This document shows, piece after piece, positions 9,068 to 49,583 of a stretch of DNA of 64,000 bases (position 1 is its first letter; each line of letters starts with the position of its first letter). The notes beneath the pieces are model-generated. The model saw nothing but the letters and a program-made list of their open reading frames with translations, was not told the DNA's origin and ran no database searches. Made by a program: the position numbers and the translations under genes. The stretch spans positions 3,228 to 67,227 of the forward strand of contig JBAQNS010000009.1 in NCBI GenBank assembly GCA_049304015.1. The letters are read 5' to 3'. The DNA is from Minisyncoccia bacterium (GTDB lineage Bacteria > Patescibacteriota > Minisyncoccia > Phycocordibacterales > Zambryskibacteraceae).

Positions 9068-9069
9068 TT

Positions 9070-9789
9070 TTATTTTAGAAGAGCATCAATTGTGGCCTTA
9101 ACCTGTTCGAATGGTTGAGCACCGTATATTGATGATTTATTTCCAGACTTAGTAATTATTACTGAGAATGGTGTCCCTTGAGCTCCTGCAGCTCCTGCAG
9201 CAGTCACATCGTCTTGAACAGCCTTAGTAAACTTACCGCTCGAAAGGCAGCTATTAAAGGCATTCACATTTACTCCAGCGAAACTTGCTAATTTTGGAAG
9301 CTCTGATTCGTCGAGAGTGTTGCCTGAATTTGTAGTGCTGAACAATTTATCAGTAAAGTCCCAGAAAGCTTTGTTGCCTCCAAGTTCATTCACACAGAGT
9401 GCAGCTTCTGATTCTTTTGGAGCTTTAGAGTGTAGTTGAGCAATAGGGAATTGTCTGTAAACCCAAGCAACTTCGTCTGGTTTGTAGGCATTCATAACCT
9501 GAAGCATGGTGTTGTGGAAAGATTTGCAGAAAGGGCATTCATAATCAGAGTATTCAACTATAACTATCTTGGCATTTGGATTACCTACAATATTATCCTT
9601 TGAAGTGACTGGTTCAACTTGGCCAACTTGACCCGATGGTTGTTGCTGTTGCTGCTGATTATTGTTAGAAGGAGCGGCCGCAATATTTTGTTGGCTGTTC
9701 TTGCCTCCTAAATATATGGCGAAGGCGATGAGTCCACCAGCTATTATTATTGATAAAGGAATAATTAATGGGTTATCTTTTTTAATCAT
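9070..9789 (-). CDS. DsbA-family thiol:disulfide oxidoreductase, membrane-anchored, with poly-Gln/Asn linker
   Basis: N-terminal TM helix, NNNQQQQQQPSGQVGQ linker, and a thioredoxin-fold CPFC active site (YECPFCKSFH). Confidence 0.75.
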   Translation of the reverse strand: MIKKDNPLIIPLSIIIAGGLIAFAIYLGGKNSQQNIAAAPSNNNQQQQQQPSGQVGQVEPVTSKDNIVGNPNAKIVIVEYSDYECPFCKSFHNTMLQVMNAYKPDEVAWVYRQFPIAQLHSKAPKESEAALCVNELGGNKAFWDFTDKLFSTTNSGNTLDESELPKLASFAGVNVNAFNSCLSSGKFTKAVQDDVTAAGAAGAQGTPFSVIITKSGNKSSIYGAQPFEQVKATIDALLK

Positions 9790-9845
9790 TTTTTAAAAAT
9801 TAATTTGTATGCAGTGAATTATATCACGTATGTTAGAATGTAAAC

Positions 9846-16964: not shown

Positions 16965-17726
16965 ATGAAAGAAAGATGGAAAAAGCTGTCTTATTTGATG
17001 CTAATATTCAGTGTCTATTTTATTGCTGTTCCTTCAACATCTTTTGCCCAAAGTACTCCATCTTCATCAACCAGAATTAATGCTCGAATTTTGCCCACTA
17101 TTTGGTATTCATCACTATCTATAAAAGAAGGGGATAAAATAAAAATCTATTCAGGTCTTCAGAATAATTCAGGAGTGGATATTAGTGGCACTGTTAGTTT
17201 TTATATTGATAACAACAAGGTGGCCTCGGACACCTTTGTATCAAAATCAGAAAGTTTAAAGGATGTCTCTATAAATTGGGTGGCTGAACCAGGGACTCAT
17301 GAGGTCCAAGTGAAAATAGTTCCTTCATTACCAGCAGACAAAATATTGATTTCTACTGAGACAGATGTATCAAAGATTAGTGTAGAAAGAATTATTACTC
17401 AGGAAGTCATTCAAGAATCAATCATGAATACTGCTACCTTGGTGGTAGACAAGGTTGACCAAGCAGCGAACGCTTTGGCAGATAAAGTGATTAGTCTAAA
17501 GAGCCCTACAATGAACACATCAGTAACCAATCCTTCCAAATTGACTGGAAGTGTTTTAGGGGCTTCTACTAGCACTAAAGCTAGTGTGAAAAACAGCGAA
17601 GTTCAGTCTAATTCACCATTTAATATTGTTTGGGATTTGTTGGCCACACTTCTTAGGCATTGGAAGTGGACCCTTTCTGGTTTGGTGGTTTTGTTTTTGG
17701 TTGTTAAACTGATTAATAATAAATAA
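16965..17726 (+). CDS. Hypothetical secreted protein with C-terminal TM anchor
   Basis: Signal peptide MKERWKKLSYLMLIFSVYFIAVPSTSFAQ and a C-terminal hydrophobic segment LSGLVVLFLVVKLI. Confidence 0.55.
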   Translation: MKERWKKLSYLMLIFSVYFIAVPSTSFAQSTPSSSTRINARILPTIWYSSLSIKEGDKIKIYSGLQNNSGVDISGTVSFYIDNNKVASDTFVSKSESLKDVSINWVAEPGTHEVQVKIVPSLPADKILISTETDVSKISVERIITQEVIQESIMNTATLVVDKVDQAANALADKVISLKSPTMNTSVTNPSKLTGSVLGASTSTKASVKNSEVQSNSPFNIVWDLLATLLRHWKWTLSGLVVLFLVVKLINNK

Positions 17727-36215: not shown

Positions 36216-37922
36216 ATGAAATCATTAATAAAATCTGCTTATAACCCAATTGCAGTGGGAGTAATACTCGCTTCTGCTCTTTTTCTGTTCGCAAATAATG
36301 CCCTTGCTTATGCAAATCCCGCTGTAGTTAATCTTGGTGGAGCTGCAAACTTCGCAGTTCTATCTTCAACAGCAATTACTAATACTCCAGCTTCAGTCAT
36401 AACTGGGGATATTGGGGTTAGCCCAGCTGCAGCTACATTCATAACTGGCTTCACTTGTCCTGCTGTCACAGGAACTGTGCATGTAGTCAGTGCTGGTGGT
36501 CCCACTCTAGCATGTCAGACAATTGACCCCGCTTACCTTACTCCAACTGTTTTAGAGTACGAGGCTGCTTATAGTGATGCACAAGGAAGAACTGCTGATG
36601 CCACTATCACTACAGCACTTGATGGTCTTACATACACACCAGGTGTATACAGTGCAGCGAATCTTGATTTGAACAACGGCAGTAGTGTCACATTAGATTG
36701 TAGTAGTAATGCGAATGGCGTTTTCATTTTTCAAACAGCCGGACACCTAAATGTTGGCACGAGTGCTCATGTGAACATTGGTAGCTGTAATTCAGGGAAC
36801 ATTTTCTGGGTTGTTGCGGGTACTACTAACATCCTCGGAGGGACAGGCACAGAGTCTACATTTCAGGGTACAGTTCTTGGTGGCCAGGGCACAACAGAAA
36901 TATCCTTAGGCGTTGGTTCAACTATACTTGGAAGATTGATGAGCGATAAAACTATTTCACTACAAGGAAATATAATTACTGTACCCACGACTCCTCCAGT
37001 ACCTGGTCCAATATTCATTGATTTGAATACCAATGGAACTCTGGATTCAGGAGAACAATCATTCACTACTATCCAAGCAGCAATAACTGCAGCAACAATA
37101 GGAGATAAAATCATTCTTACTTCAGATATAACCACCACAGCACAAATTCTAATCAATAAAGCTCTTACAATTGATGGTCTTGGACATACACTATTTGCGA
37201 CAATAACTAGCGGGGCAAACTCAGCTATAACAATTAGTGCAAATGATGTCACTATTAAAAATCTTGTAGAAAATGGTACTGGAAGTACAGGTATTCATGG
37301 GTTCAATATTTATCAAGCAAGCAATGTAACTCTTGATGCTGTAACCGCTTCAAACAATAATAAATCTGGAATTACAGTAAACGGTTCAGTTGTAACAGTT
37401 AATAACATTAAAACAGCCGGTAATGCGTGGGGTGGTATCAATGTTGATTTGGGCAGTGGTGTTGTTGGTCCAGCTACACTCACAGTAAATGGCACCAGTG
37501 CTCACACTGAGGTTAACGCAGATATCTGGAAAGATGACAACGCAAAGATGAATGTGACAGTAGTAGATACCAACCATCAATATTCTAATTCAACTTATAC
37601 TCATGATGTAAGTATTGTTGGAACAAAATACAAACTTCTTGTAGCTGAGCAAACACCTCCAGAAGAAGTTGACACCACTCCTGCTGTGCCAGTTCCTGGA
37701 GGACACAGAAGGAATAATAATGCTGCTACACCATCACTACCATCACAGGCTTCTCCTGTCGCTGTAGGACGTGTCCTTGGTGCCTTCACTGGACCAGATG
37801 GCTCAAGTGAAACATCACTTCAAATCATTGCTATTAAAACTCAACTTGTTGGTCTAATCAGAGAGTTAATCGCAATGCTCCAGATACAACTACAAGCAGC
37901 TAAGGATGCTGGTCAGTACTAA
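36216..37922 (+). CDS. Secreted surface protein: DUF3494 (ice-binding-like) N-domain plus parallel beta-helix repeats plus conserved C-terminal heptad module
   Basis: Signal/TM N-terminus; LGGAANFAVLSSTAITNTPASVITGDIGVSPAAATFITGF matches the DUF3494 signature; NxxxNG beta-helix repeats; C-terminal QASPVAVGRVLGA...LQIIAIKTQLVGLIRELIAMLQIQLQ. Confidence 0.7.
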   Translation: MKSLIKSAYNPIAVGVILASALFLFANNALAYANPAVVNLGGAANFAVLSSTAITNTPASVITGDIGVSPAAATFITGFTCPAVTGTVHVVSAGGPTLACQTIDPAYLTPTVLEYEAAYSDAQGRTADATITTALDGLTYTPGVYSAANLDLNNGSSVTLDCSSNANGVFIFQTAGHLNVGTSAHVNIGSCNSGNIFWVVAGTTNILGGTGTESTFQGTVLGGQGTTEISLGVGSTILGRLMSDKTISLQGNIITVPTTPPVPGPIFIDLNTNGTLDSGEQSFTTIQAAITAATIGDKIILTSDITTTAQILINKALTIDGLGHTLFATITSGANSAITISANDVTIKNLVENGTGSTGIHGFNIYQASNVTLDAVTASNNNKSGITVNGSVVTVNNIKTAGNAWGGINVDLGSGVVGPATLTVNGTSAHTEVNADIWKDDNAKMNVTVVDTNHQYSNSTYTHDVSIVGTKYKLLVAEQTPPEEVDTTPAVPVPGGHRRNNNAATPSLPSQASPVAVGRVLGAFTGPDGSSETSLQIIAIKTQLVGLIRELIAMLQIQLQAAKDAGQY

Positions 37923-37967
37923 AAAAGCTATCAACAGTTTCTACACATGTTAGACACTTTGTCTACA

Positions 37968-37996
37968 TTGACACCTCTATATATAAGGCGTATACC
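37968..37996 (+). promoter_or_regulatory. Sigma70-like promoter TTGACA-17 nt-TATACC upstream of second beta-helix gene
   Basis: Seen directly; same -35/-10 hexamers as at 40151 and nearly the same as at 19690. Confidence 0.5.
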
Positions 37997-38084
37997 GAAA
38001 GCAACAACTTATTAGAGGTGTTTTTGTGTGTTAAGTTGCCTTAATCAAGTATTATTTAAATTAACTAGTATTAATAACATTAAA

Positions 38085-40085
38085 ATGAAATCTTTAATCA
38101 AATCAGCTTACAGGCTAACAGCCGTGGGTGGAATCCTCGCAGTAGCCTTCTTCGCTTTCGCGGGGAATGCGAAAGCGTATACTCAAGCAGACTTTGCAGC
38201 ATTTGATGGTGTTAATATCGGAACAAACAGTTATACGGTAAGTTCTGATATTACAGCGACATATATTAGTGGTACTGGTACTGAAACTGATCCAGTTAAG
38301 TTAACGTTAACAGGACATGCACCAATAATAACCCCATGGTTTGGCCAAAATTGGACAACGTATAACTATGTAGCAATAGGAATTAAACTACCGACGACAG
38401 GTTTTATTGGAACCCAAATAACTGGTGGAACTGCTGTATATCAAGCAGATGTGATGAGATATGATGATCTGACTAACTTTCCGAATGGCTATTACACAGT
38501 AGGATATGGAAGTATCCCATTGGCAACAGGAGGTGCCGCGCTCGGTTATTTGGACTATGAATTCGCAGCTAATTCAAATAATACTAAGAAAGACGGATTA
38601 GTTAAACTGAAAGTAATTTGGAATACAGATAGTGCACCCGAATATTTCACGATTGATATTAACGGCCTGCAATTAGATACCGCTACACACAAGTTTGTTT
38701 CTACTATTGGACAACTTACGTCAGCACTTGCTGCCGCAAATTCTGGCGACACAATTACACTAACCTCCAACATAACCACAAGTTCTGAGCTTGATATAAA
38801 CAAAGCTCTAACACTAGATGGTGCAGGACATAAATTAAGTGCTTCTTTTTTGAGAACAGATAATAGTAATAATTCTGCTATAGGAATTAAAAGTGTTGAC
38901 GGTGTAACAATAAAAAATCTTATAGTTGACGGAACAGGTGGGAGTTCAGTTTGGTTGAGTCAACTTCACGGGATAAATATATATTTATCAACAAATGTAA
39001 ACTTGAATGATGTAACAGCAATGAATTTTGGTGGTGCCGGCATTAATGTTAACGGTTCTTTAGTAACTGTAAACAACATCACAACATCAGGCAATTCATG
39101 GGGCGGTATTAATGTTGATAGACCAACAGTTACAAATACAACCACACTAACAGTAAATGGAATAAGTTCTCACAACGAAGTTAATGCTGCAATATGGAGA
39201 GATGATAATGCAAAAACAAACGTAACTGTTATAGATATGGATCACCAGTATTCTCAATCCACATATACTCATGATACAAATGTTGTAGGAACCTTGTGGA
39301 AGTTACTTGCAACAGGTCAAATTGTTCCAGAAAATGGTGAGGCTACAGTTACTCCAACAAATAAAGAAGTTGTTGTTACTGCAACGACACCAATCACGGT
39401 TAATCTGGGAAGTGTTGAAGACGCAACTATAAACTTTGATTCACTTATTACAAATGGAGAAGGAGTTATTCCTCAGACAACCATTATTTCAAATGTTGCA
39501 GAAGTAAAAATTGATGATGGTACAAAAGTCACTGCAACTGATACTAATTGGAATGGAGTGATGCAGGCACCAACAGCCGGTGATACATCAGGAACAGCTC
39601 CTGCCAGTTTCTCTGTTGGTAATACGGTTATTGAAATGGGTTCATCTCAATATACTCTGAACTTTGACAAGGCGGTGAAGATTACACTTCCTGGTGTCAC
39701 AGGTAGAGTTGGTTATAGACCAGCTGGTTCTACAGAGTGGCAGCTAATTACAACTCAGTGCACAAGTTCAACAGTTCCAGGTATCACCTCTGGTGAATGC
39801 TATGTTGCTGAAGGTGGAAATACTGTCATTTGGACTTACCACTTCACATCTTTTGGAGGACTAGAACCCATTTCTGTAAATAAATCTGGTGGAAGAAGTG
39901 GTGGAGGCAGAGCCACAATCTTACCTCCTCAAGCCTCTCCTGTAGCAGTAGGACGAGTACTCGGCGCAGAGACAGAAAATGCTGCAGCTGTAGCTCTACA
40001 GATTGCCTCCATTAAAGCTCAGTTAGCAGATTTGATTAGACAACTAATTACTCTTCTTCAAGCTCAGATAGATTCACAGAGATAA
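38085..40085 (+). CDS. Secreted parallel beta-helix surface protein (paralog) with conserved C-terminal heptad module
   Basis: Signal peptide MKSLIKSAY... (the same N-terminal 9 aa as the upstream gene); the beta-helix block NLIVDGTGGSS...GINIYLSTNVNLNDVTAMNFGGAGINVNGSLVTVNNITTSGNSWGGINVD is shared with the upstream gene; C-terminal QASPVAVGRVLGAETENAAAVALQIASIKAQLADLIRQLITLLQAQI. Confidence 0.7.
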   Translation: MKSLIKSAYRLTAVGGILAVAFFAFAGNAKAYTQADFAAFDGVNIGTNSYTVSSDITATYISGTGTETDPVKLTLTGHAPIITPWFGQNWTTYNYVAIGIKLPTTGFIGTQITGGTAVYQADVMRYDDLTNFPNGYYTVGYGSIPLATGGAALGYLDYEFAANSNNTKKDGLVKLKVIWNTDSAPEYFTIDINGLQLDTATHKFVSTIGQLTSALAAANSGDTITLTSNITTSSELDINKALTLDGAGHKLSASFLRTDNSNNSAIGIKSVDGVTIKNLIVDGTGGSSVWLSQLHGINIYLSTNVNLNDVTAMNFGGAGINVNGSLVTVNNITTSGNSWGGINVDRPTVTNTTTLTVNGISSHNEVNAAIWRDDNAKTNVTVIDMDHQYSQSTYTHDTNVVGTLWKLLATGQIVPENGEATVTPTNKEVVVTATTPITVNLGSVEDATINFDSLITNGEGVIPQTTIISNVAEVKIDDGTKVTATDTNWNGVMQAPTAGDTSGTAPASFSVGNTVIEMGSSQYTLNFDKAVKITLPGVTGRVGYRPAGSTEWQLITTQCTSSTVPGITSGECYVAEGGNTVIWTYHFTSFGGLEPISVNKSGGRSGGGRATILPPQASPVAVGRVLGAETENAAAVALQIASIKAQLADLIRQLITLLQAQIDSQR

Positions 40086-40104
40086 TTAGGATTAGATAAA
40101 TATT

Positions 40105-40132
40105 AAAAACTACCCTATTTAGGGTAGTTTTT
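40105..40132. terminator. Bidirectional-type terminator (CTACCCT-attt-AGGGTAG flanked by A5/T5)
   Basis: Seen directly. Confidence 0.6.
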
Positions 40133-40150
40133 ATATGCACTTTTTATCTA

Positions 40151-40179
40151 TTGACACACGGTGTTATTGAGAGTATACC
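40151..40179 (+). promoter_or_regulatory. Sigma70-like promoter TTGACA-17 nt-TATACC upstream of MBG gene
   Basis: Seen directly; it lies inside the annotated 5' extension of ORF 40151, so the true start is the ATG at 40193. Confidence 0.5.
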
Positions 40180-40192
40180 GAGGGTATCAAAT

Positions 40193-40678
40193 ATGTTGAC
40201 AAAGACAAAAAATTATAGGCAAGCAAACTATGTAGTGTTTTTAGCACTTGTTTTTACTGTAAATTTTTTATTTGTTTCTACTACCTTTGCAGTCGGTTCT
40301 ACCCAACAAACAATTTTGTTTGCTTCCATACCAGATAAGATTTATGGGGATAGTGACTTTATCATTAATGCCACATCAACAGATTCTGTTACTGGAGAAC
40401 CTACAGGACTACCAATTAACTTTGTTCTAAATCAAGGACCTTGCTCGATTAATTTGGTATCAGGAAGTACAACAATTCACATCATCGCAGCTTCAAGTAC
40501 TCCATGTAGACTCAAGGCAAACCAGGAAGGAAATGATACTTATGCGCCTATTGATAATGTTAACGTATCATTTTTAGTGTCACCCAAACCAATTACTATA
40601 AGTGTTTCTAATACAGAAAATAAAATTTTTGGAGAGCCAGATCCGGAGTTTGCATATACTGGAGCAGATTCCTTATGA
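40193..40678 (+). CDS. MBG-domain surface protein, N-terminal part (gene interrupted by frameshift at the 3' end)
   Basis: Signal/TM N-terminus; ends inside an MBG domain (KPITISVSNTENKIFGEPDPEFAYTGADSL-stop). Confidence 0.5.
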   Translation: MLTKTKNYRQANYVVFLALVFTVNFLFVSTTFAVGSTQQTILFASIPDKIYGDSDFIINATSTDSVTGEPTGLPINFVLNQGPCSINLVSGSTTIHIIAASSTPCRLKANQEGNDTYAPIDNVNVSFLVSPKPITISVSNTENKIFGEPDPEFAYTGADSL

Positions 40679-41202
40679 CGTTTAATGCGGGTATGCTGAA
40701 TATTGATGCGAGACCTTTAACTATAACTGGTGTGACAAATTCAAAAATATATGATGGTTCAATTTCAGCTGCTGCCATTCCAATAATCACCTCAGGCACA
40801 TTGGCTCCTGGTGATGTGGCGACCTTGTCTGAAACTTATGACTCTGAAGGAGTCGGCTCTGGCATAGCACTTAATGTTGATATTTTGATAAATAATGCTC
40901 TTGGTGCAGATGTAAGTGACAACTATATTACTACAACAATAAGTGGTGTTGGAGATATATTAGCAGTCCCTCAAGAGGTTCAAACACCAGAGCCTGTAAG
41001 GAGCTCTGGTGGGGGAAGATCGACATCAAGATTACAGACATCTACAGCTTTAACCGCACCAACGGTTGGTCGTGTTCTTGGTGCAGAGACAGAGAACACT
41101 GCTGCTGTAGCTCTACAGATTGCCTCAATCAAAGCTCAACTGGCTGATTTAATTAGACAATTAATAGCACTTCTACAAGCACAGATTCTTTCTGCACAGT
41201 AG
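40675..41202 (+). CDS. MBG-domain surface protein, C-terminal part with conserved C-terminal heptad module (ATGA overlap with upstream part)
   Basis: Begins with the tail of an MBG repeat (TFNAGMLNIDARPLTITG), then a second MBG repeat, then TVGRVLGAETENTAAVALQIASIKAQLADLIRQLIALLQAQI. Confidence 0.5.
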   Translation: MTFNAGMLNIDARPLTITGVTNSKIYDGSISAAAIPIITSGTLAPGDVATLSETYDSEGVGSGIALNVDILINNALGADVSDNYITTTISGVGDILAVPQEVQTPEPVRSSGGGRSTSRLQTSTALTAPTVGRVLGAETENTAAVALQIASIKAQLADLIRQLIALLQAQILSAQ

Positions 41203-41274
41203 AAATAAAATCAGAATAATCAAACAAAAAACTTGCCCATAGACTTGGGTGAGTTTTTGATTTATAATCATATT

Positions 41275-42258
41275 ATGATTAAGTGGTTCAAAAAACACTT
41301 TATACCTCATGAAGGCAATGACCATCAGCCTCATTTTCTTCGTACCAAAAATATTCGAGCAGTCGTTCTAATTCTTTTTGTTTTGGAGTTAGGAGTTTTT
41401 GCCATTCCTTATATACCTGCAATAGGTCCAGCATACAACAATTACCTCGCAGCAGTTTTGCCCGGAGTGTTGGACAGTCTTTCTAATCAAACAAGACAAG
41501 AAAATCATTTAGCCACCCTTACTGTTAGCCCACTCTTAAATAAAGTGGCTGAACTGAAAGCGAAGGACATGGCAGAAAAAGGATACTTTGCCCACACCAG
41601 TCCCGAAGGCAGAGCGCCTTGGTATTGGTTCGATAAAGCTGGTTATAAATATTTGTTCGCTGGAGAGAACTTAGCAGTAGACTTCACTGATTCAAAAGAT
41701 GTTACTTTGGCCTGGATGAATTCTCCTACACATAGAGCCAATATAGTGAAAGGCGTCTATACAGAAATGGGTACTGGAGTAGTGAGTGGTAACTTTGAAG
41801 GTCACCCAACTATTTTTGTTGTCCAAGTCTATGCGAGACCACTAACTACGATTGCTACTGTTTCTGAACCAAGTGCAGTTTCAAATATTAAGCCAACAAC
41901 AACTCAAACTACTAAGACTGTTGAATCCAAGGTCCTCGGTGCAGAAGTGGCCTTAGATGCAAACGTCACTTCACCCACACAACCTAAATCAAATTTGCTC
42001 ATGCAGTATGTTACTTCTCCTGGACGTGTAGCCAATATGATTTTTGTTATTTTGGGCATAATGATTTTACTCGCCTTAGTACTGAAATTATTTATAAGAA
42101 CAGATAAACGACATCCAAAACTCATTACCAATGGACTTGTTGTTTTGGTACTAATCTTTGGAATTTATAGTGTGAATAGTTACATAACCAAGAATAAAAT
42201 TTCACATAATATTACTTTCTACAGCTTTAACAATGAGAACCTTACTGACACTTACTAG
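41275..42258 (+). CDS. CAP/SCP/PR-1 (YkwD-like) domain protein, membrane-anchored at both ends
   Basis: CAP motifs (HYTQVVWRATxxVGCA-like: GHPTIFVVQVY; HRANIVKGVYTEMGTGVV) and N- and C-terminal TM helices. Start taken at MIKWFKK, downstream of a TATAAT box. Confidence 0.7.
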   Translation: MIKWFKKHFIPHEGNDHQPHFLRTKNIRAVVLILFVLELGVFAIPYIPAIGPAYNNYLAAVLPGVLDSLSNQTRQENHLATLTVSPLLNKVAELKAKDMAEKGYFAHTSPEGRAPWYWFDKAGYKYLFAGENLAVDFTDSKDVTLAWMNSPTHRANIVKGVYTEMGTGVVSGNFEGHPTIFVVQVYARPLTTIATVSEPSAVSNIKPTTTQTTKTVESKVLGAEVALDANVTSPTQPKSNLLMQYVTSPGRVANMIFVILGIMILLALVLKLFIRTDKRHPKLITNGLVVLVLIFGIYSVNSYITKNKISHNITFYSFNNENLTDTY

Positions 42259-42998
42259 AGCACCTCTATTTCAGAAATTTTATTTGATTTAAATTCATAT
42301 AGACTGGCTGGTCGGGAACGATTACCAATTCTCTTGTGATGTAGTCTCTCTAGTATCTTTAATTTCAATATTTTCTTCCTAAAATTACGCTTATCCAAAT
42401 CAGCCTTGAGGATACTCTCGTATGCTTGTTCGAGTTCAGTGAGAGTAAATTCTTTGGGCATCAGTTTGCACATCAATGTTGTATAAGTGATTCTTGATTG
42501 GAGTCTCCTTAGAGCTACTTTGAGAACTTCATCGTGGTCATAGGCAAGATTTGATAATTGATCAACATGTTTCCATGACAATTCTCTAGTATTAATTTTT
42601 TCTGTTTCAGTTAATGATTCCCATGGCACTAATCCAATATAGGCGACTGCCACAACGCGTCCACGAGGATCTCTATTAATGCGGCTAAATGTATATAATT
42701 GCTCAATATGAATTTTTTTAGTTGAAATCATGCCCGCTCTATCTTTCACTAGACGTACTACCGCTTGCTCAGCTGTTTCAGTAGGGAGCATAAGGCCACC
42801 AGGAAGTCCTGGTCTATCTACAAAGTGGGGGATATGGTTGACTTTCATGATGCGGACAAGAAGTTCCTTATTGTGAATAGTGAATAAGGCTATATCTGCG
42901 GCCAAGACAGCGAAACGTAGGTGTTTAGGAGAACTATTTTTAGGCATAAATAATTTATAGCAACATACAGATATATTGTCAAATATACACTTATCCAC
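42255..42998 (-). CDS. NrtR-like regulator (degenerate Nudix domain plus C-terminal winged-helix)
   Basis: Nudix fold with an incomplete Nudix box (GLPGGLMLPTETAEQAVVRLVKDRAG lacks the REx2EE glutamates) and a C-terminal DNA-binding-like region. The likely start is the Met at 42947. Confidence 0.6.
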   Translation of the reverse strand: MDKCIFDNISVCCYKLFMPKNSSPKHLRFAVLAADIALFTIHNKELLVRIMKVNHIPHFVDRPGLPGGLMLPTETAEQAVVRLVKDRAGMISTKKIHIEQLYTFSRINRDPRGRVVAVAYIGLVPWESLTETEKINTRELSWKHVDQLSNLAYDHDEVLKVALRRLQSRITYTTLMCKLMPKEFTLTELEQAYESILKADLDKRNFRKKILKLKILERLHHKRIGNRSRPASLYEFKSNKISEIEVL

Positions 42999-43132
42999 AG
43001 TTTAGTAATTGTATAGTTGACACTAAGTAAATTAAGGAATAGTGTGAGGTTAGACATATAAACCAAGCACTATTCTGAACCATTGACTGTGTCTTATAAG
43101 TGTTATAGAGTAGTGCGGGTTTAGACCGTTCT

Positions 43133-44023
43133 TTGTCAGAGAGATTTAGTTTAGCTGACAATCTATTTAGTTCAATTTTGACCTCAAAAGGAGGGATATT
43201 GATTATCAAAGATCCTGGCTCTGGGAAGAGCTATGAAGTTGGTCAAAGAGTGGCTGAGACCGAAAGGTATCGGCTTTATCTCTGTAGACCAGAGGGTGAG
43301 TCTTCGGACCACCTGCTTCAAATCGCGGTGGAGGTGGAGCATAATGCTGCCCTCGATCGCGCGTCGTACGTTCTGGAAAGGCTCGAAGAAGAAGCTCGCA
43401 AGATCGAGGAAGAGTTCGCCAAGGTGAAAACCGAGCCGAATCACTTCCTGAATTACCAACTCTGTTTCCCCAAGGTCGTGGGTTCATTCATACCAGACGA
43501 TCAGGGTGGCAGACGAGTAAACATCCTTTGCTTCAGAGAGGTGGAGGATGTAGGCAAGGTTGTACCGCTACAGAACCTCGTAGAGACGGACAAGCTTCGT
43601 GCAGATTTGAGGTCGAGTGCTTGGATCATGGGGAAACTCCTCAAGATCCTCATCTTCCTCAATGATGCGAATGTGGTTGCTCATGATCTGTCGCTCGGCA
43701 ATGTTCTCATCGAACCCGAGCAACACTACGTCATCATTTTCAGTTGGGCTGACGCCGAATTGAAAGCTGGTGCAGTAGGTAGAGCAATCACGAGAAGTGA
43801 AATTCAAGCAGCTGCTCGCGTTGTCATCGAAGTGCTGGGAGGTACTCTCGAAGGAGGTATCCCCGGTGATGGTGGTCAAGAGCATGTTCAGTATCAGAAG
43901 TTTCTCTTCGACCTCGCACATGGCAGTGAAAGTAACGCGGCACTGGCTCACATGTCGTTCTACAAGTTGGTTGATAGTTTGTGGCCACGCGGTTTCTATC
44001 CATTCACCACCCACTCTCGGTAA
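43133..44023 (+). CDS. Protein-kinase-like/APH-family phosphotransferase (divergent) - first gene of high-GC island
   Basis: Gly-rich loop IKDPGSGKSYEV and catalytic loop VAHDLSLGNVLIE (compare HGDLHPGNIL of APH/CotS and HRDLKPENIL of kinases), followed by IIFSWADAE. High-GC codon usage. The start is ambiguous: TTG at 43133, or TTG at 43199 after an AAGGAGGG SD. Confidence 0.55.
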   Translation: MSERFSLADNLFSSILTSKGGILIIKDPGSGKSYEVGQRVAETERYRLYLCRPEGESSDHLLQIAVEVEHNAALDRASYVLERLEEEARKIEEEFAKVKTEPNHFLNYQLCFPKVVGSFIPDDQGGRRVNILCFREVEDVGKVVPLQNLVETDKLRADLRSSAWIMGKLLKILIFLNDANVVAHDLSLGNVLIEPEQHYVIIFSWADAELKAGAVGRAITRSEIQAAARVVIEVLGGTLEGGIPGDGGQEHVQYQKFLFDLAHGSESNAALAHMSFYKLVDSLWPRGFYPFTTHSR

Positions 44024-44040
44024 AACGGGAAGGAAGGACG

Positions 44041-45165
44041 ATGGGAAGCAGAACATTCTCGAGGGATGCCTACGTCAAGGCGAGCAGCTTGTACACCAAG
44101 CCGGGTGAGTCAACGACTGCCCGAGGTGAACAAGAAGTTCGTCGGACAGGCAAGCTGAATCCACTTGTGGATCCGGCTGAATTCGGAGTAGTGCGTGAAT
44201 CACGCATTCGCCTCGAAGATCGAGAAGGAGGTGGCTTCACTGTCACCGTGGGCACACCAGTGCCTGTCGAGTATCGTCTGGACACCACTGGTTCCATGGG
44301 TGACAACGTCGAACGGGCGTACAAGGCACTGCCGCATACGTGCGAGCATGTGGCCGCTGTACTGCCAGGCCGAGACCCCTTCTACTGCGCTTCGATTTTC
44401 GGTGATGTCGTCGACCAGTTCGTACTGTGTCGAGGACAATTCGAAGCCGAAGCAGAGAAGATGGTCAACCAACTCACGCTCATGGTTCCAGAAGGTAGCG
44501 GTGGAGACACCCCAGAAGATCCTCAGTACGGACTCTTCGGTGCCGCCTACCTTACCAACGCTTATCTGCAACGTATCGGTTTGCGCTCCTATGACTTCAC
44601 TGTCACGGACGCACCGATGCATGATCTGATTAGCGCCAAGCAGCTCAAGCGTATCTTCGGTGATGAAGTGTTCGAGAAGCTGAAGGAAAATGGCCAGTCG
44701 ATTTCAGCGAAGGATTTACCCTCCAATACAGAGATCGTCAAGGATCTCTTGAAGAGGGCTCATGCCTTTGCTTTCATGGTTGGCAATTCTGCCACCCACG
44801 CCTGGACCAGCCTCTACGGTTCCGAACACGTGATTCTTCTGCCCCGGATCGAGTACACTCCTCACATCATGGCCGTTATCATTGGCCTGACGGAAGGAAC
44901 TCTCGATTTGCGTTCATCCAAGGATTTCTTGACTGAACGCAACCTCAGCAAGGTCGAAGCACAGGGCATCATCGACGCAGTGGCGCACATCCCGCTCGGT
45001 GCACAGACCATGTGCCCCAATTTCGACAAGTTGCCCAAGGCAGGTGACATCTTCAAGGAGAAGACCGACCTCTGGCCGATCGATCCGGAAGACATTCCTA
45101 CTTCTGCTGCTCCGAAGAAGGGCAAGAAGGGCGGCAAGGAATCTGGCAAGGGTGGGTGGCTCTAG
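44041..45165 (+). CDS. von Willebrand factor A (vWA) domain protein with MIDAS motif
   Basis: RLDTTGSMGDN (DxTGS MIDAS), a later VTDAPMHD element, and a Lys/Gly-rich C-tail. GGAAGGAAGGA SD before the ATG at 44041. Confidence 0.7.
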   Translation: MGSRTFSRDAYVKASSLYTKPGESTTARGEQEVRRTGKLNPLVDPAEFGVVRESRIRLEDREGGGFTVTVGTPVPVEYRLDTTGSMGDNVERAYKALPHTCEHVAAVLPGRDPFYCASIFGDVVDQFVLCRGQFEAEAEKMVNQLTLMVPEGSGGDTPEDPQYGLFGAAYLTNAYLQRIGLRSYDFTVTDAPMHDLISAKQLKRIFGDEVFEKLKENGQSISAKDLPSNTEIVKDLLKRAHAFAFMVGNSATHAWTSLYGSEHVILLPRIEYTPHIMAVIIGLTEGTLDLRSSKDFLTERNLSKVEAQGIIDAVAHIPLGAQTMCPNFDKLPKAGDIFKEKTDLWPIDPEDIPTSAAPKKGKKGGKESGKGGWL

Positions 45166-45192
45166 GCTTTCACTTCGACCGAGGACGTGACG

Positions 45193-46566
45193 ATGAAAAA
45201 GATTTACGTCGTCACGGACCTTGGTCCTGGTGACGGTGGTAAGGGTGGTGTGGTCCACAAGATCAGCCACATGCAAGGTGCTCACACTATCCTCAAGGTA
45301 GGAGGAGCACAGGGAAGTCATGGAGTATCTACTTCGAGTGGAAAACGATTTGCCTTTAGTCAATTTGGTTGTGGCACCTTCGAAGGTGTTCGCACTCACT
45401 TGACCAAGAGGTTCGTTGCTTCACCTGAAGGGATACTCAACGAAGCGCAAGCTTTGGATCAAGGTTGTGGTTTGAGTGATGTCTACAGTCTGCTCACAGT
45501 GGATGAGGATGTCATTTGTGCCACTCCGTATCATGGCATCTCTTCACGCTTGAAAGAGCTTGCAAGAGGAGATAATCTTCGCGGTACGATTGGGACAGGG
45601 GTTGGTGAGGCGTTTCGCTACAACCAACGTTTTCCTGAACTGACTATCCGTGCGAAGGATCTCTTCAGCCAAAACCTAAGAGAGCTGCTGGCTGCAGTTA
45701 GAGACCAACTACACGTTGACCTCGAATCTGTAATTAGTGGTACTTTCTTAGAAAGTGATAGGGTCTTAGTTGAACAAGAAGTAGATCGTCTGCTTGATCC
45801 GAAATACCTTGAATTTATTTTGCATCGTTTTCGAACGGCTGCAAAGCATGTCCGAATAGTAGGCCAAGAGTATTTTCATGATCTTACCACCAGCTATGGT
45901 GTGATGGTTGTTGAAAGTTCTCATGGTGTACTGACGGATCATTTTCAAGGGTTTCATCCTCATACTTCAGCCATTCGAACACTTCCTCGCTTCACGCGTG
46001 GGATGCTCGAAGAAGTTGGATATGATGGCGAACTGGTGAACATTGGGGTAACCCGTGCATATCAAATTCGTCATGGTGCAGGGCCTATGCCAACAGCCGA
46101 TGAGGCTATGGCAGAAAACCTTTTACCAGGAAGTTCGAAGGATGAGAATCGCTATCAGGGAAAGGTGCGTGTTGGTCCACTTGATTTGGTACTGCTTCGT
46201 TATGCGATAGCAGCCTGTGGTGGACCAGATGCATTCGACGGCTTGGCTGTCACCTGGTTCGATCAAATCCAGGAGAATGGATCTTGGTTTTTGTGTCGGA
46301 GCTACAAGGGAGCAACAGATCAAAACTTTTTCACCCCACAAGGTGAGTTGAAGGTTCGATTTGGAGATGATGAAGAACAGTTGAAGTATCAGGAGGAACT
46401 TGGTCACCATCTAGAAAGGTGCGTACCAGTGCTCACAGAGCACACAGTTTCTCCTGGTCCCAACTTTAACTTCCTCACTTGCTCTGCAGTATTGAATGAA
46501 GCACTTCGAGTACCTGTACGGATGGTCTCGTTCGGATCTACCGAACAAGAAAAATTGTGTAGGTGA
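45193..46566 (+). CDS. Adenylosuccinate synthetase (PurA)-family protein, highly divergent
   Basis: PurA hallmarks present: GDGGKGG (cf. GDEGKGK), GGAQGSHG (cf. GGHNAGHT), GTIGTGVGEA (cf. GTTGRGIGP), TRAYQIRHGAGPMPT (cf. TRVGAGPFPTE), VRVGPLDLVLLRYA (cf. GWLDTVAVRRA). The Asp-binding GATTGRRRR loop is replaced by NRYQGKVRVG and Gln224 (EGAQG) is replaced by His (ESSHG). Confidence 0.75.
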   Translation: MKKIYVVTDLGPGDGGKGGVVHKISHMQGAHTILKVGGAQGSHGVSTSSGKRFAFSQFGCGTFEGVRTHLTKRFVASPEGILNEAQALDQGCGLSDVYSLLTVDEDVICATPYHGISSRLKELARGDNLRGTIGTGVGEAFRYNQRFPELTIRAKDLFSQNLRELLAAVRDQLHVDLESVISGTFLESDRVLVEQEVDRLLDPKYLEFILHRFRTAAKHVRIVGQEYFHDLTTSYGVMVVESSHGVLTDHFQGFHPHTSAIRTLPRFTRGMLEEVGYDGELVNIGVTRAYQIRHGAGPMPTADEAMAENLLPGSSKDENRYQGKVRVGPLDLVLLRYAIAACGGPDAFDGLAVTWFDQIQENGSWFLCRSYKGATDQNFFTPQGELKVRFGDDEEQLKYQEELGHHLERCVPVLTEHTVSPGPNFNFLTCSAVLNEALRVPVRMVSFGSTEQEKLCR

Positions 46567-46588
46567 ATTCAAACCACAAGGAGTAACC

Positions 46589-47737
46589 GTGGGAACTTCT
46601 GCAGAACCGACCGTTGGTGACGCTGTCACCACGAGGCTCACCGAATTGGGTGTCGAACCGACTGTGATCGAGAAGATCAGGACGGACCTCGGCGCCACTT
46701 CGGTGGACGATCTGGCTGGCCTCAACGAGAGTGATCTCGTCGGCGCCGGCATGAAGGCTCTTCCGGCGAGGAATCTCGTCGCAAAGCTCAGGAAGGCCGC
46801 AGCGGAAGCTGCTGCTCCTGCCGCAAGTGCAGTCAGCACGATGTCGTTCGAAGGCGTACTGCCGGCAGTGCCGGATGATACGTCATGGCTTGCGGCACTT
46901 CGTGCAGGTGGAGTTCTGAAGGTCGATCAGTCGACCGTCATCTCCGCCGTTCGTGCAGGACTCGCTCACCGGGTCGGACTCTTCGAAGTTCCGGATCTGC
47001 TCGTCGCAGAGATGGAGCGGTTCTCGGATGCGAACGAAGAGCAGGTCGACCCGGAGTTCTTCAAGCTCCGCAAGATGCTGACTCGCAAGTCGTACGGCGA
47101 TATCTTCGAGGCCATCGAAGGACTCGAAGGCTCGTACGTCACCGAGGGTCGCAAGAAGGAACTCTTCAGCCGTCTCGATGGCAAGTTGTGGCCGGCAATC
47201 ATCAGCTTCAACGGCGCCCTTAAGGCGTGGCAGGAAGCATGGATGCAGGGTGCAGCCAATCCTGCCATCATGATGAGCGCGATCTTTGCGGCTTCTGGTA
47301 CTGGTGGTGGAGCGATGCCTCCGGGCATGATGCAGCCACCCGATACCGGCGTCCTGCGTGACAACGCGGCAGCCGTGGCGGACGCAGTCAATCGCGTTTT
47401 CGCTGGGACTGGCGTGCAGATCGCCGCGGCCCTCGCATACGAGGCGTCGCGTATCAAGGAGACTCTCACGAACCCGCGGTTGCCCGCCCTTATCGGTGCG
47501 GCCAATCGCGACCAGATGCTTCGTCAGCTGGGTGTGGCCGTTTCGGCGACCTATCCTCGCCTCGAGATGAACCTGACCAAGTTCGTGCTGGCGGTTCTGC
47601 AGGCACAGGACCAGCCGGCCGGCAACGAAGAGCTTCAGTACTTCGGTGCCATGTACATGCTCGGGTCCCAGATCCCCTGGGAGCAGCTGGGTTCGACTGG
47701 CAAGCCGTCGGGTATCGGCGGCGGTCGTCGCCTCTAG
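46589..47737 (+). CDS. Hypothetical protein with tandem N-terminal HeH/SAP-like motifs and Gly/Met/Pro-rich central segment
   Basis: GTG start after a GGAG SD; LTELGVEPTVIEKIR and LAGLNESDLVGAGMKALPARNLVAKLRKAA helix-extension-helix patterns; GTGGGAMPPGMMQPP segment; high-GC codon usage. Confidence 0.55.
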   Translation: MGTSAEPTVGDAVTTRLTELGVEPTVIEKIRTDLGATSVDDLAGLNESDLVGAGMKALPARNLVAKLRKAAAEAAAPAASAVSTMSFEGVLPAVPDDTSWLAALRAGGVLKVDQSTVISAVRAGLAHRVGLFEVPDLLVAEMERFSDANEEQVDPEFFKLRKMLTRKSYGDIFEAIEGLEGSYVTEGRKKELFSRLDGKLWPAIISFNGALKAWQEAWMQGAANPAIMMSAIFAASGTGGGAMPPGMMQPPDTGVLRDNAAAVADAVNRVFAGTGVQIAAALAYEASRIKETLTNPRLPALIGAANRDQMLRQLGVAVSATYPRLEMNLTKFVLAVLQAQDQPAGNEELQYFGAMYMLGSQIPWEQLGSTGKPSGIGGGRRL

Positions 47738-47766
47738 AACCAAATCTCTCAATAAGTACATTAGTT

Positions 47767-47797
47767 GGGCGGATACGATTAGTGTCCGCCCTTTTTC
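47767..47797 (+). terminator. Rho-independent terminator (GGGCGGA-N11-TCCGCCC followed by T5) closing the high-GC island
   Basis: Seen directly; composition returns to low GC immediately after. Confidence 0.6.
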
Positions 47798-47807
47798 ATT
47801 GCCTAAT

Positions 47808-49583
47808 TTATGAAAGTTTAGGGAGAAAAACTCTTTGGGTAAAAAGTTTAAGTGCAGTTTGTCTAAATCCTGAATCCCAAAATACACTCTTTCCATCAAC
47901 AAGTTCGGAATGTTCAGTATGCAATCCGCCGGAGGGAGGTAAAAATTTCTTGTACCCCTTGTGCATCAGTCTGTATTGCAAGGTGTCTCTTTCAAGTTCC
48001 TCTAAGAAAACTCTTCGTGCAGGCAATCCATAAATTTCACCATTATTGTAAAAATATTGAGTCAAAAGTTTTTCGTGCAAATCTTTTATCACTTGTTTGT
48101 CTCCATCCCAAACTGCTCCAAACAAAACATGGGTCCAGTAACTTTCTCCTACGAATGGTTCTGGTTTATCAAAATCATGAACCTTTAATCCAATTGGTGC
48201 TTCCTCTAACCAAAACTCTATAGTGTCTCCATGAGCATATTTTTGAGGAAGCTTTGACTTGAGTAACTCCTTAACTCTCTCCTTATCCTCCAATTTAATT
48301 TCAGGTTTAACAAAAATAGCCAAATCTAAGTCAGAATTTGATGTCCCATAGCCCTTAAGTTTTGAGCCAAAATACAATGCCACAGGGTATAAATACTGTG
48401 CCAGCTCTGCATCATTTTCGATTATTGAGGTAATATTATTCATAATTTCTTGATCATTATTAGCCTCAGTCAAATTTTTTGAAAACGGTCCTGATAGGGA
48501 AGTGAGTTTTAGACCAAGACTCAAAAATACAGCTTCATCCAAAATATTTAATTTGTTTAATCTATAGAAAAGAGTTGAAAGTTCATCTACAGTCTCTGGA
48601 GTTTTTTTATCCCAAAGTGACATTATGATATCCTCATATTTTTTGTATATTTTTATAGCTTCATCTTGATTTACTGCTGTTGTTGACTCTATGGCATCTC
48701 GGATACCAATAACCAAGGCGAGTTTGTCATCACTAGTTACGACCTTTTCATCCTCTAGTACTAGTTTTGCTATATCACGGGCTTTTGATTCTGTATCCCT
48801 TCTCTTTCTTTCACTACTTAACCAAGCAGTGCGTCCTTCTGTGACTATTTCTGGTTCTTCAATTTCAATTCTAGCTTCAGAAACATTAATTTGCCCCAAG
48901 TATTTATCCTCCACAAGTCCCAGGTCGACCGCTACAGTGAGTGCTTCATATGCATTTTGTCTAAAGACGTCATCATCACTTTCACTGATTAAGTTTAAAA
49001 CTTTATCTACACTAATTAATTCCTTTTCTATTAATTTAGGGATTAAGTGCGCAGCCTTTACCACTCTGGGCAAATCACTTTCTCTTAATTCTACTTCTAA
49101 TACATCTCCATCAACAAAATTTGCTCGGACATCATGTATATCTAAGCATGCTTCCCATGCATTCATGTATGTTGCTCTAAATTTTTCTGCAGCTTGTGAC
49201 AGTTCACTATCAGGAGCACCTAAATTTACACTCGGTAAATATTCGAATGGCACATAAAGCAAAGCTCTTTTATAATCTGGGTTTTCAAGTAAATGACTCA
49301 ATGATTCAAACAAATCTATAACCTGCTTCTCACTCAGCTGGCCTTCATTTAGTGCCAGTTCTAACTCAATATTAGGTTTTCGCATATTAGAAATCACAGC
49401 TTCAACACTTTCAATTATTTTTTTGCGTTCTTCTATTTGTTTAATGAATACCTCATTGTCCAAAATCTTTTCTGGCCAAACATTCGACTGATTAGTTGAA
49501 TCAAGTAGTGATTCAACTGCAGGTACGGTAAATTGTCTTTTCTCTGCTGATTCTTCGTTTAGATTTGTGCCCTCTCTATACAT
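47808..49583 (-). CDS. Pol-beta-superfamily nucleotidyltransferase domain protein with large N-terminal helical region
   Basis: C-terminal GS...D.D motif (FGSKLKGYGTSNSDLDLAIFV); 591 aa. The true start is probably downstream of 49583 because of the divergent overlap with ychF. Confidence 0.5.
   Translation of the reverse strand: MYREGTNLNEESAEKRQFTVPAVESLLDSTNQSNVWPEKILDNEVFIKQIEERKKIIESVEAVISNMRKPNIELELALNEGQLSEKQVIDLFESLSHLLENPDYKRALLYVPFEYLPSVNLGAPDSELSQAAEKFRATYMNAWEACLDIHDVRANFVDGDVLEVELRESDLPRVVKAAHLIPKLIEKELISVDKVLNLISESDDDVFRQNAYEALTVAVDLGLVEDKYLGQINVSEARIEIEEPEIVTEGRTAWLSSERKRRDTESKARDIAKLVLEDEKVVTSDDKLALVIGIRDAIESTTAVNQDEAIKIYKKYEDIIMSLWDKKTPETVDELSTLFYRLNKLNILDEAVFLSLGLKLTSLSGPFSKNLTEANNDQEIMNNITSIIENDAELAQYLYPVALYFGSKLKGYGTSNSDLDLAIFVKPEIKLEDKERVKELLKSKLPQKYAHGDTIEFWLEEAPIGLKVHDFDKPEPFVGESYWTHVLFGAVWDGDKQVIKDLHEKLLTQYFYNNGEIYGLPARRVFLEELERDTLQYRLMHKGYKKFLPPSGGLHTEHSELVDGKSVFWDSGFRQTALKLFTQRVFLPKLS

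Follow-up and report, generated by a model that had tools for sequence, protein, structure and literature searches.

We describe a C-terminal module that ends three neighbouring open reading frames (ORFs), here called g1, g2 and g3b, in a stretch of 64,000 nucleotides (the window) from a Minisyncoccia metagenome-assembled genome. The module combines a short motif around the residues VLGA with a single amphipathic helix. It is a real, conserved and previously unannotated C-terminal domain, specific to the candidate phyla radiation (CPR, or Patescibacteria) and its Parcubacteria. As a sequence family it is new, and its functional kind is a familiar one. The exact proteins of the locus are found in NCBI as MFZ2049168-172, and the assignment of the organism to Minisyncoccia agrees with the CPR lineage supposed in an earlier note on this DNA.

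The three tails read ...PVAVGRVLGAFTGPDGSSETSLQIIAIKTQLVGLIRELIAMLQIQLQAAKDAGQY in g1, ...PVAVGRVLGAETENAAAVALQIASIKAQLADLIRQLITLLQAQIDSQR in g2 and ...APTVGRVLGAETENTAAVALQIASIKAQLADLIRQLIALLQAQILSAQ in g3b. Each has about 48 residues and is composed of VGRVLGA, a spacer of 6-9 residues and an amphipathic helix of about 33 residues, and all three proteins end without an LPXTG motif, a transmembrane (TM) segment or a basic tail. The earlier note had described three consecutive genes ending in this module. This is true for g1, g2 and g3b, all on the plus strand, but the third gene is not intact and is split into g3a and g3b.

A profile of about 50 positions, built from 11 tails (alignment A4), was run in an exhaustive hmmsearch against 1.84e9 representative proteins and matched 116 protein clusters at E<=1e-3, with 21 at E<=1e-10. 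The match of g1 to the module profile scores 75 bits over residues 514-564. The possibility, raised at the outset, that the module is absent from any other genome is contradicted by these 116 clusters. In about 100 of 106 new matches the module lies within 13 residues of the C-terminus, and 65 of the 97 new matches that begin with Met pass a crude signal-peptide test. Family members range in length from 54 to 2476 amino acids (aa) and carry very different passenger domains, of kinds typical for the cell surface, ahead of the module. Among 95 members, the Pfam counts are Bact_surface_Ig-like 25, PG_binding_1 22, Beta_helix 14 and Ice_binding 10, and NosD, HYR, InlK_D3, MBG_2, SpaA and Cohesin are found as well. 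All members that are named at phylum level or below are from the CPR (Minisyncoccia, Paceibacterota, Parcubacteria, Patescibacteria group, Colwellbacteria and Kaiserbacteria), and one is named just '[bacterium]'. A homologue search with a three-sequence module alignment was insensitive, the query being short and of low complexity, and missed even the query proteins. A genome-contig scan with strict patterns recovered the sister-species locus L001 only, and a metagenome scan with alignment A6 gave 4 loci.

The tails of g1-g3 have no match in Pfam-A or NCBIfam scans, and no tail family is among the 25 most frequent of the 31 Pfam families that match the 95 members. Sequences in the PDB give no significant match to the tail (best E-value 0.42); the weak, non-significant similarities are to coiled coils only, including a designed triple-helix Alphabody. 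In the literature we found no description of a VLGA motif, or of VLGA in Patescibacteria. Together with the profile search, this bears out the earlier suggestion that the module is an unrecognised domain.

Across the family the module consists of a Gly/Ser/Pro-rich linker, the motif G-[QER]-V-L-G-A-x-T and, 6-12 residues later, the helix, with the consensus QIxxIKxQLxxLIxQLIxLLQAQL. In an alignment of 100 tails the motif columns are strongly conserved (G5 86%, V7 98%, L8 90%, G9 100%, A10 85%, T12 83%). The helix has hydrophobic columns at 22, 25, 29, 32, 33, 36, 37, 39, 40 and 44, forming a wide Ile/Leu face, and conserved polar columns at K26, Q21, Q28, Q35, Q41 and Q43, in which a ladder of Gln stands out. 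Its composition is Ile/Leu/Gln/Ala/Lys and the consensus has no aromatic residues. Degenerate variant helices exist, for example EQMKALLAQLQAQVAALLLKLNSL.

The VLGA motif reaches beyond the three tails. It is found 5 times in the proteins of the window against 0.61 expected, an 8-fold enrichment (Poisson P = 4e-4), and all 5 copies lie 42-108 residues before the C-terminus of secreted or membrane proteins, always in the C-terminal extracytoplasmic part. One is the SKVLGAEV segment that the earlier note had pointed out in the neighbouring CAP protein (PF00188), which indeed stands ahead of the C-terminal TM helices. Another belongs to a secreted protein at 16965-17726. Its family has a weak Big_7 match, and the members close with [ST]VLGAST, some 25 aa of spacer, a TM helix and then a basic tail. 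Locus L010 encodes a homologue that closes in this way at 9067-9825. Since this family carries it, the VLGA junction exists outside the cluster from g1 to CAP. VLGAxT can also be repeated 2-3 times in one protein (P0029, P0013, P0076).

The modules of g2 and g3 are 79% identical at the DNA level (102/129 nt), close to the 80% given earlier and taken then as a sign of recent duplication or gene conversion. The codons tell otherwise. Of 43, 21 have synonymous differences only and 3 have non-synonymous differences, which points to old copies whose peptide is under purifying selection. The g2 module differs from its L001 orthologue by 20 synonymous and 7 non-synonymous codons, so that the paralogues have undergone as much synonymous change as separates g2 from the orthologue of another species. 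The non-synonymous differences (3 between the paralogues against 7-8 to the orthologue, counts too small to rely on) are suggestive of a constraint on the module within the genome. In contrast, the tails of two Ice_binding genes at locus L008 differ at only 4/99 nt. The comparison of gene copy number proposed in the earlier note reveals an expansion, with one module gene at the locus in the sister species (L001 and L010) and three in the window. Locus L008 has three module genes independently.

Exchangeable endings and the predicted structure of the helix

Comparison of g2 homologues shows that G-x-VLGA-x-[ST] is a general junction motif, after which three endings are possible: the helix; a PG_binding_1 domain, which begins two residues past the motif (VLGAETFNF...); or a spacer, a TM helix of the WYWW type and a basic tail. 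About 25 of 106 family members have the arrangement ...PG_binding_1-[QV(L/A)GAST]-helix, and VLGA therefore occurs on both sides of the wall-binding domain. In minimal proteins the passenger is missing altogether. Some consist of a signal peptide, GYGGG, PG_binding_1 and the helix (P0048, P0074, P0105, P0130, P0150), others of a signal peptide and the helix (P0045, P0061, P0064). Proteins of just 150-190 aa, built only from a signal peptide, (V)GYGGGG, VLGA, PG_binding_1, VLGA and a Q-rich helix, are abundant in the CPR (the five just listed with PG_binding_1, P0159 and P0161), and they could be envelope tethers or scaffolds. The order can also be reversed, as in a neighbour gene at L015 with the Q-rich helix directly N-terminal to PG_binding_1.

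One exchange is seen between L006 and L008, which are syntenic (infA ... rpsM). In L006 both Ice_binding genes encode C-terminal LPxTG-like signals, complete with TM segment and basic tail, and a sortase gene adjoins; their L008 counterparts encode the helix instead (...ISSIKAQLTVLIKQLIAILQAQIVDQRGY), and L008 has no sortase gene. A gene of the g2 family directly precedes a CAP gene at nine loci in at least five genomic contexts, and its ending varies. The helix is its ending in the window and in L001, L008, L010, L015, L016 and L017. PG_binding_1 plus helix is found in L006 and in L003, where as an exception the CAP gene is two genes downstream. L018 has PG_binding_1 without the helix, and L019 has a TM anchor. 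We tested g1, g2 and g3b for a sortase (LPXTG) signal and found none, nor a sortase gene at the window locus. PF01471 (PG_binding_1), which is present in many homologues, has no match at E<=0.01 in g1, g2, g3a or g3b.

Since CAP follows the module gene at every locus, we considered it as a partner of the helix or as a processing enzyme, but we do not take the pairing as evidence for this, because CAP also follows the PG_binding_1 gene of L018 and the TM-anchor gene of L019. The CAP pairing persists whatever the C-terminal ending of the first gene, so it is the passenger family, rather than the helix, to which CAP is linked. CAP orthologues are found at L001 10236-11207, L006 12576-13592, L008 12178-12735, L010 12135-13115 and in L015-L019. 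They share the N-terminal motif W[FL]KK[HY]FIPHEGNxHxPHFL, and most carry a VLGA motif before the C-terminal TM helices. In a metagenome locus (L003 4330-5932) a sortase-like gene lies immediately 3' of the CAP gene that trails the beta-helix/PG_binding_1/helix gene by two genes. Three proteins (P0059, P0091, P0135) have a sortase-like VPGFPxTGF motif after the helix and end there, perhaps through truncation at the end of a contig. If this motif is real, helix and sortase signal can coexist.

The AlphaFold2 model of g2 has a poorly modelled N-terminal region, a confident beta-helix plus beta-sandwich at residues 200-600, a linker at 605-632 that contains VLGA (predicted local distance difference test, pLDDT, <50) and, in the monomer, a lone helix at 633-665 (pLDDT 68-92). 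In the model of P0010 the VLGA motifs on both sides of PG_binding_1 are likewise in low-confidence linkers. Single helices are significantly amphipathic when compared with shuffled sequences (hydrophobic moment, muH, 0.33-0.47; mean hydrophobicity 0.4-0.7; net charge about +1).

The earlier note had read the hydrophobic residues as a 3-4-3-4 spacing suggesting a coiled coil. The spacing is regular for the first 2.5 heptads, after which a one-residue shift widens the hydrophobic face. Over the family profile, hydrophobic periodicity peaks at 3.71 residues, nearer to 11/3 than to a strict heptad. Power at 3.5 residues is 58-74% of the peak, and with only about 30 residues of helix the values 3.5 and 3.67 cannot be rigorously told apart. 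Heptad a/d positions cover 6/10 of the conserved hydrophobic columns against 8/10 for the hendecad positions a/d/e/h. A classical heptad coiled coil thus has no firm support and is neither established nor excluded.

Proposed function and alternative explanations

The N-terminal signal peptides direct the module proteins into Sec export. We propose that the C-terminal helix, on its flexible linker, would then hold the variable passenger, be it an Ice-binding-like, beta-helix, Ig-like or YDG domain, at the cell envelope. Retention would be by helix bundling. The partners would be copies of the same helix, paralogues in which it is joined to PG_binding_1, helix-only paralogues, or more than one of these. 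The helix would then be a non-covalent alternative to a sortase signal, a TM anchor or PG_binding_1 at the same position. We infer both the retention and the bundling, and give the explanation as a whole about an even chance. Envelope retention is the most likely role of the helix, like that of its replacements, because all alternatives at orthologous positions are known envelope-retention devices. The idea of an anchoring or oligomerisation unit, put forward in the earlier note, fits these comparative data, which are the principal evidence on function. Bundling would account for the architectures that we observe (cargo-helix, anchor-helix, cargo-anchor-helix, helix alone and helix-LPXTG), and the Ile/Leu/Gln composition without aromatics is consistent with it. 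The VLGAxT motif stands at the head of all anchor types and may serve for processing or recognition.

Several observations weigh against bundling as the mechanism. A PG_binding_1-helix anchor, sought with P0105, is found many times in the CPR, but none could be traced to the window genome. The helix followed by VPGFPxTGF in P0059, P0091 and P0135 indicates that the helix is not always a substitute for another anchor, and the lack of a signal peptide in g3b means that one of the three copies may be non-functional. VLGAxT is explained neither by bundling nor by its rivals. Furthermore, the periodicity of 3.71 rather than 3.5 and the wide hydrophobic face would suit an amphipathic helix lying on a membrane or surface equally well.

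PBP5 and PBP6 of E. coli have C-terminal helices that act as in-plane membrane anchors. In the same way the helix could, after Sec export, lie along the outer leaflet of the cytoplasmic membrane, where it would tether its passenger, in which case the PG_binding_1-helix proteins would bridge wall and membrane. Its strong amphipathicity, hydrophobicity and slight positive charge agree with this, as do the straight hydrophobic stripe with a wide face that follows from a period of 3.7, the exchange with TM anchors at orthologous positions and the flexible linker on which the helix hangs. The consensus, however, has no aromatics, K26 is its only conserved basic residue, the polar face is formed by the conserved ladder of Gln and not by Lys/Arg, and the helix-only secreted proteins and those with a sortase-like motif after the helix are hard to explain as membrane anchors. 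We therefore regard an in-plane anchor as possible but unlikely. It is more doubtful still whether G-x-VLGA-x-T is a protease or transpeptidase site at which the downstream element would be cut off or replaced, much as in LPXTG/sortase or PEP-CTERM/exosortase systems. In favour of such a signal are the conservation of VLGAxT, its position in predicted disordered linkers, its presence before all three non-sortase anchor types and in the CAP orthologues, its repetition within proteins and its enrichment in the window. But no conserved candidate processing enzyme is seen in the loci, and sortase is present in some loci only, where its substrates have LPxTG-like motifs. Cleavage on both sides of PG_binding_1 would excise the wall-binding domain, and a helix that is discarded would leave its own strong conservation and the helix-only proteins unexplained.

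That the module has no specific function, being a generic low-complexity Gln/Leu helix and linker carried along by drift in a lineage-specific gene family, seems very unlikely to us. Coiled-coil-like sequences arise easily and some variant helices are more degenerate, but the position-specific conservation over 100 sequences on unrelated passengers, the strict C-terminal location and the excess of synonymous codon differences all speak for a function. Least credible of all is a phage-derived trimerisation unit, in which g1-g3 would be tail-fibre or tailspike-like genes of prophage origin with the helix as a trimerising foot. In a Foldseek search the g2 passenger resembles the right-handed beta-helices of tailspikes, including Geobacillus virus E2 ORF18, and of PL6 lyases (E 5e-5), and the Ile/Leu core positions are compatible with trimers. 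The link to phage tail fibres drawn in the earlier note nevertheless does not hold up. The module was not found in 2.9 million viral contigs in two scans with two different pattern sets, the loci lie amid housekeeping genes (ddl, ychF, infA, rpsM) and contain no phage genes, the passengers are mostly Ig-like or PG-binding rather than tail-fibre domains, and the proteins carry N-terminal Sec signal peptides. Such an origin is already largely refuted.

To return to bundling, a more specific version is that G-x-VLGA-x-T and the Gln-ladder helix form a CPR-specific non-covalent display system, in which cargo docks by hendecad-type bundling on wall-bound PG_binding_1-helix or helix-only scaffolds and VLGAxT is recognised or processed by an envelope factor. 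We put this forward tentatively and think it rather improbable as a whole. If true, the system would be a third general route, besides sortase and TM anchoring, to a host-attachment coat.

The locus in the window

The coordinates of the features are collected in Table 1. The description of g1 as a DUF3494 plus beta-helix protein was correct (PF11999, Ice_binding/DUF3494, E 2.2e-38, 132.5 bits against the Pfam cut-off of 28.7). No Pfam match was found for g2, which is nevertheless the beta-helix paralog it was said to be: g1 and g2 have three blocks in common (the signal peptide MKSLIKSAY..., the beta-helix and the tail), and their beta-helices are 52% identical over 241 aa.

Table 1. Features of the module locus and of a further VLGA-bearing protein in the window
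Feature	Position	Strand	Description
VLGA-bearing secreted protein (fifth)	16965..17726	+	...GSVLGAST..., spacer, C-terminal TM helix, basic tail
g1	36216..37922	+	ORF, 568 aa; signal peptide (MKSLIKSAY...), Ice_binding/DUF3494 aa 48-255, beta-helix aa ~265-489, linker, C-terminal module
g1 C-terminal module	37764..37922	+	VGRVLGAFT, spacer, amphipathic helix, stop
Promoter-like TTGACA-N17-TATACC	37968..37996	+	Upstream of g2; exact match
g2	38085..40085	+	ORF, 666 aa; exact NCBI protein MFZ2049169.1; signal peptide at N-terminus
g2 C-terminal module	39948..40085	+	VLGA motif 39957-39968; predicted helix ~39981-40079
Terminator-like hairpin	40104..40133	.	3' of g2; 13-pair stem, then T-run
Promoter-like TTGACA-N17-TATACC	40151..40179	+	Upstream of g3a; exact match
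g3a	40193..40678	+	ORF, 161 aa; signal peptide; stops inside MBG-like fragment
g3b	40675..41202	+	ORF, 175 aa; YDG domain and module, no signal peptide; ATGA overlap with g3a stop
g3b C-terminal module	41065..41202	+	VGRVLGA, spacer, amphipathic helix
CAP-domain membrane protein	41275..42258	+	N-terminal TM, CAP, linker with SKVLGAE at 41932, C-terminal TM helices

The third gene had been taken for an intact MBG-domain gene, and this cannot be upheld. It is present as two ORFs, and MBG_2 (PF18676) on the conceptually fused protein, across the break, reaches 10.6 bits, below the cut-off of 25, whereas YDG (PF18657) passes its Pfam cut-off with 30.8-31.5 bits. The MBG-like fragment seems internally deleted at the g3a/g3b junction. 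Three other assemblies from the same organism have the split too, with g3a annotated at 161 aa, and inspection of the junction for a programmed frameshift revealed no slippery sequence. The two ORFs probably represent a gene that has decayed or been split. The CAP protein matches PF00188 with E 2.4e-16 (61 bits, cut-off 21.1) and has a 327-aa form in NCBI (P0006).

A promoter of the form TTGACA-N17-TATACC had been assigned to each gene. Exact copies are present upstream of g2 and g3, and these are the only 2 in the window (0.35 expected at <=1 mismatch); no exact site was found upstream of g1 or the CAP gene. A near-identical signal peptide, MKSL[IV]KSAYKLTAVGGILAVALFAFAGNA, is common to different surface proteins across species (window 36216-36308 and 38085-38177, L006 7967 and 10001, L010 10001, P0054 and P0099). 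In these proteins both ends are conserved and the middle is variable, and the signal peptide may be a dedicated export or targeting signal.

Downstream of the CAP gene, about 7.3 kb (42255-49583) separate it from ychF. This segment is absent from the syntenic L001 and L010, in which ychF directly follows CAP. Its GC content is 0.52-0.55 at 44-48 kb against about 0.38 elsewhere, and the whole resembles an island acquired by horizontal transfer. Among its contents are an NrtR-like NUDIX/WHD regulator, three ORFs without a Pfam match, a divergent adenylosuccinate-synthetase-like protein (45187-46566) and a Pol-beta-type nucleotidyltransferase-like protein (47808-49583). A PADLOC scan of this GC-rich island gave no match.

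Comparison with known systems

A large part of bacterial diversity belongs to the CPR, whose members live in attachment to other cells, and to our knowledge almost nothing has been described of how they display surface proteins. The profile of about 50 positions provides a searchable flag for surface-displayed CPR proteins. Our results also show the helix to be interchangeable with sortase, TM and PG_binding_1 anchors, and VLGAxT to be a conserved linear motif that heads helix, PG_binding_1 and TM ends. The information can be used for CPR surfaceome annotation, as a Pfam-type family to deposit, and for the design of peptides for assays of oligomerisation, membrane binding and processing.

One analogy is to the sortase (LPXTG) signals of monoderm bacteria. 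Both are C-terminal elements of Sec-exported surface proteins with variable passengers, and they are found at the same position in orthologues, as in L006 with its LPxTG-like signals and sortase gene and L008 with the helix. The difference is that g1-g3 have no LPXTG, TM segment or basic tail, that the window locus has no sortase gene and that attachment would be non-covalent. In Minisyncoccaceae that parasitise methanogens, the genes for secreted PG-binding proteins rank among those with the highest expression (PMC10936435). Like PG_binding_1 (PF01471), SLH and LysM, the module would be a modular C-terminal retention device, and in orthologues of the g2 family PG_binding_1 replaces the helix or directly precedes it, with the same VLGA junction before both. 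However, the module is a single helix and not a three-helix fold, it has no Pfam match, and peptidoglycan binding is not implied.

Coiled-coil stalks next to wall-binding domains are known from Lpp (Braun's lipoprotein), Deinococcus SlpA and OmpM (SLH plus coiled coil). These would share with our family the combination of a short helical oligomerisation element, putative in the module, with a peptidoglycan-binding element, and the minimal signal peptide-PG_binding_1-helix proteins are reminiscent of such small envelope tethers. The module differs in having no lipobox or C-terminal Lys, a periodicity of 3.7 instead of 3.5 and no sequence similarity, and CPR bacteria, as far as we know, have no outer membrane. 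A likeness to trimeric autotransporter adhesins finds no support in our data, in which there is no Pfam match to a YadA-type beta-barrel and the C-terminus is a single predicted helix. With the anchors of PBP5 and PBP6 (DacA/DacC) the module has in common that an exported protein would be held by a C-terminal amphipathic helix, at the membrane in their case; the module helix is about twice as long, Gln-rich and free of aromatics, and forms a conserved family across unrelated passengers. Finally, the module has no relation in fold or sequence to cohesin and dockerin, and this comparison is wholly inferential, but if bundling between different proteins holds, the principle would be alike, with one small module on many cargoes docking onto anchored partners.

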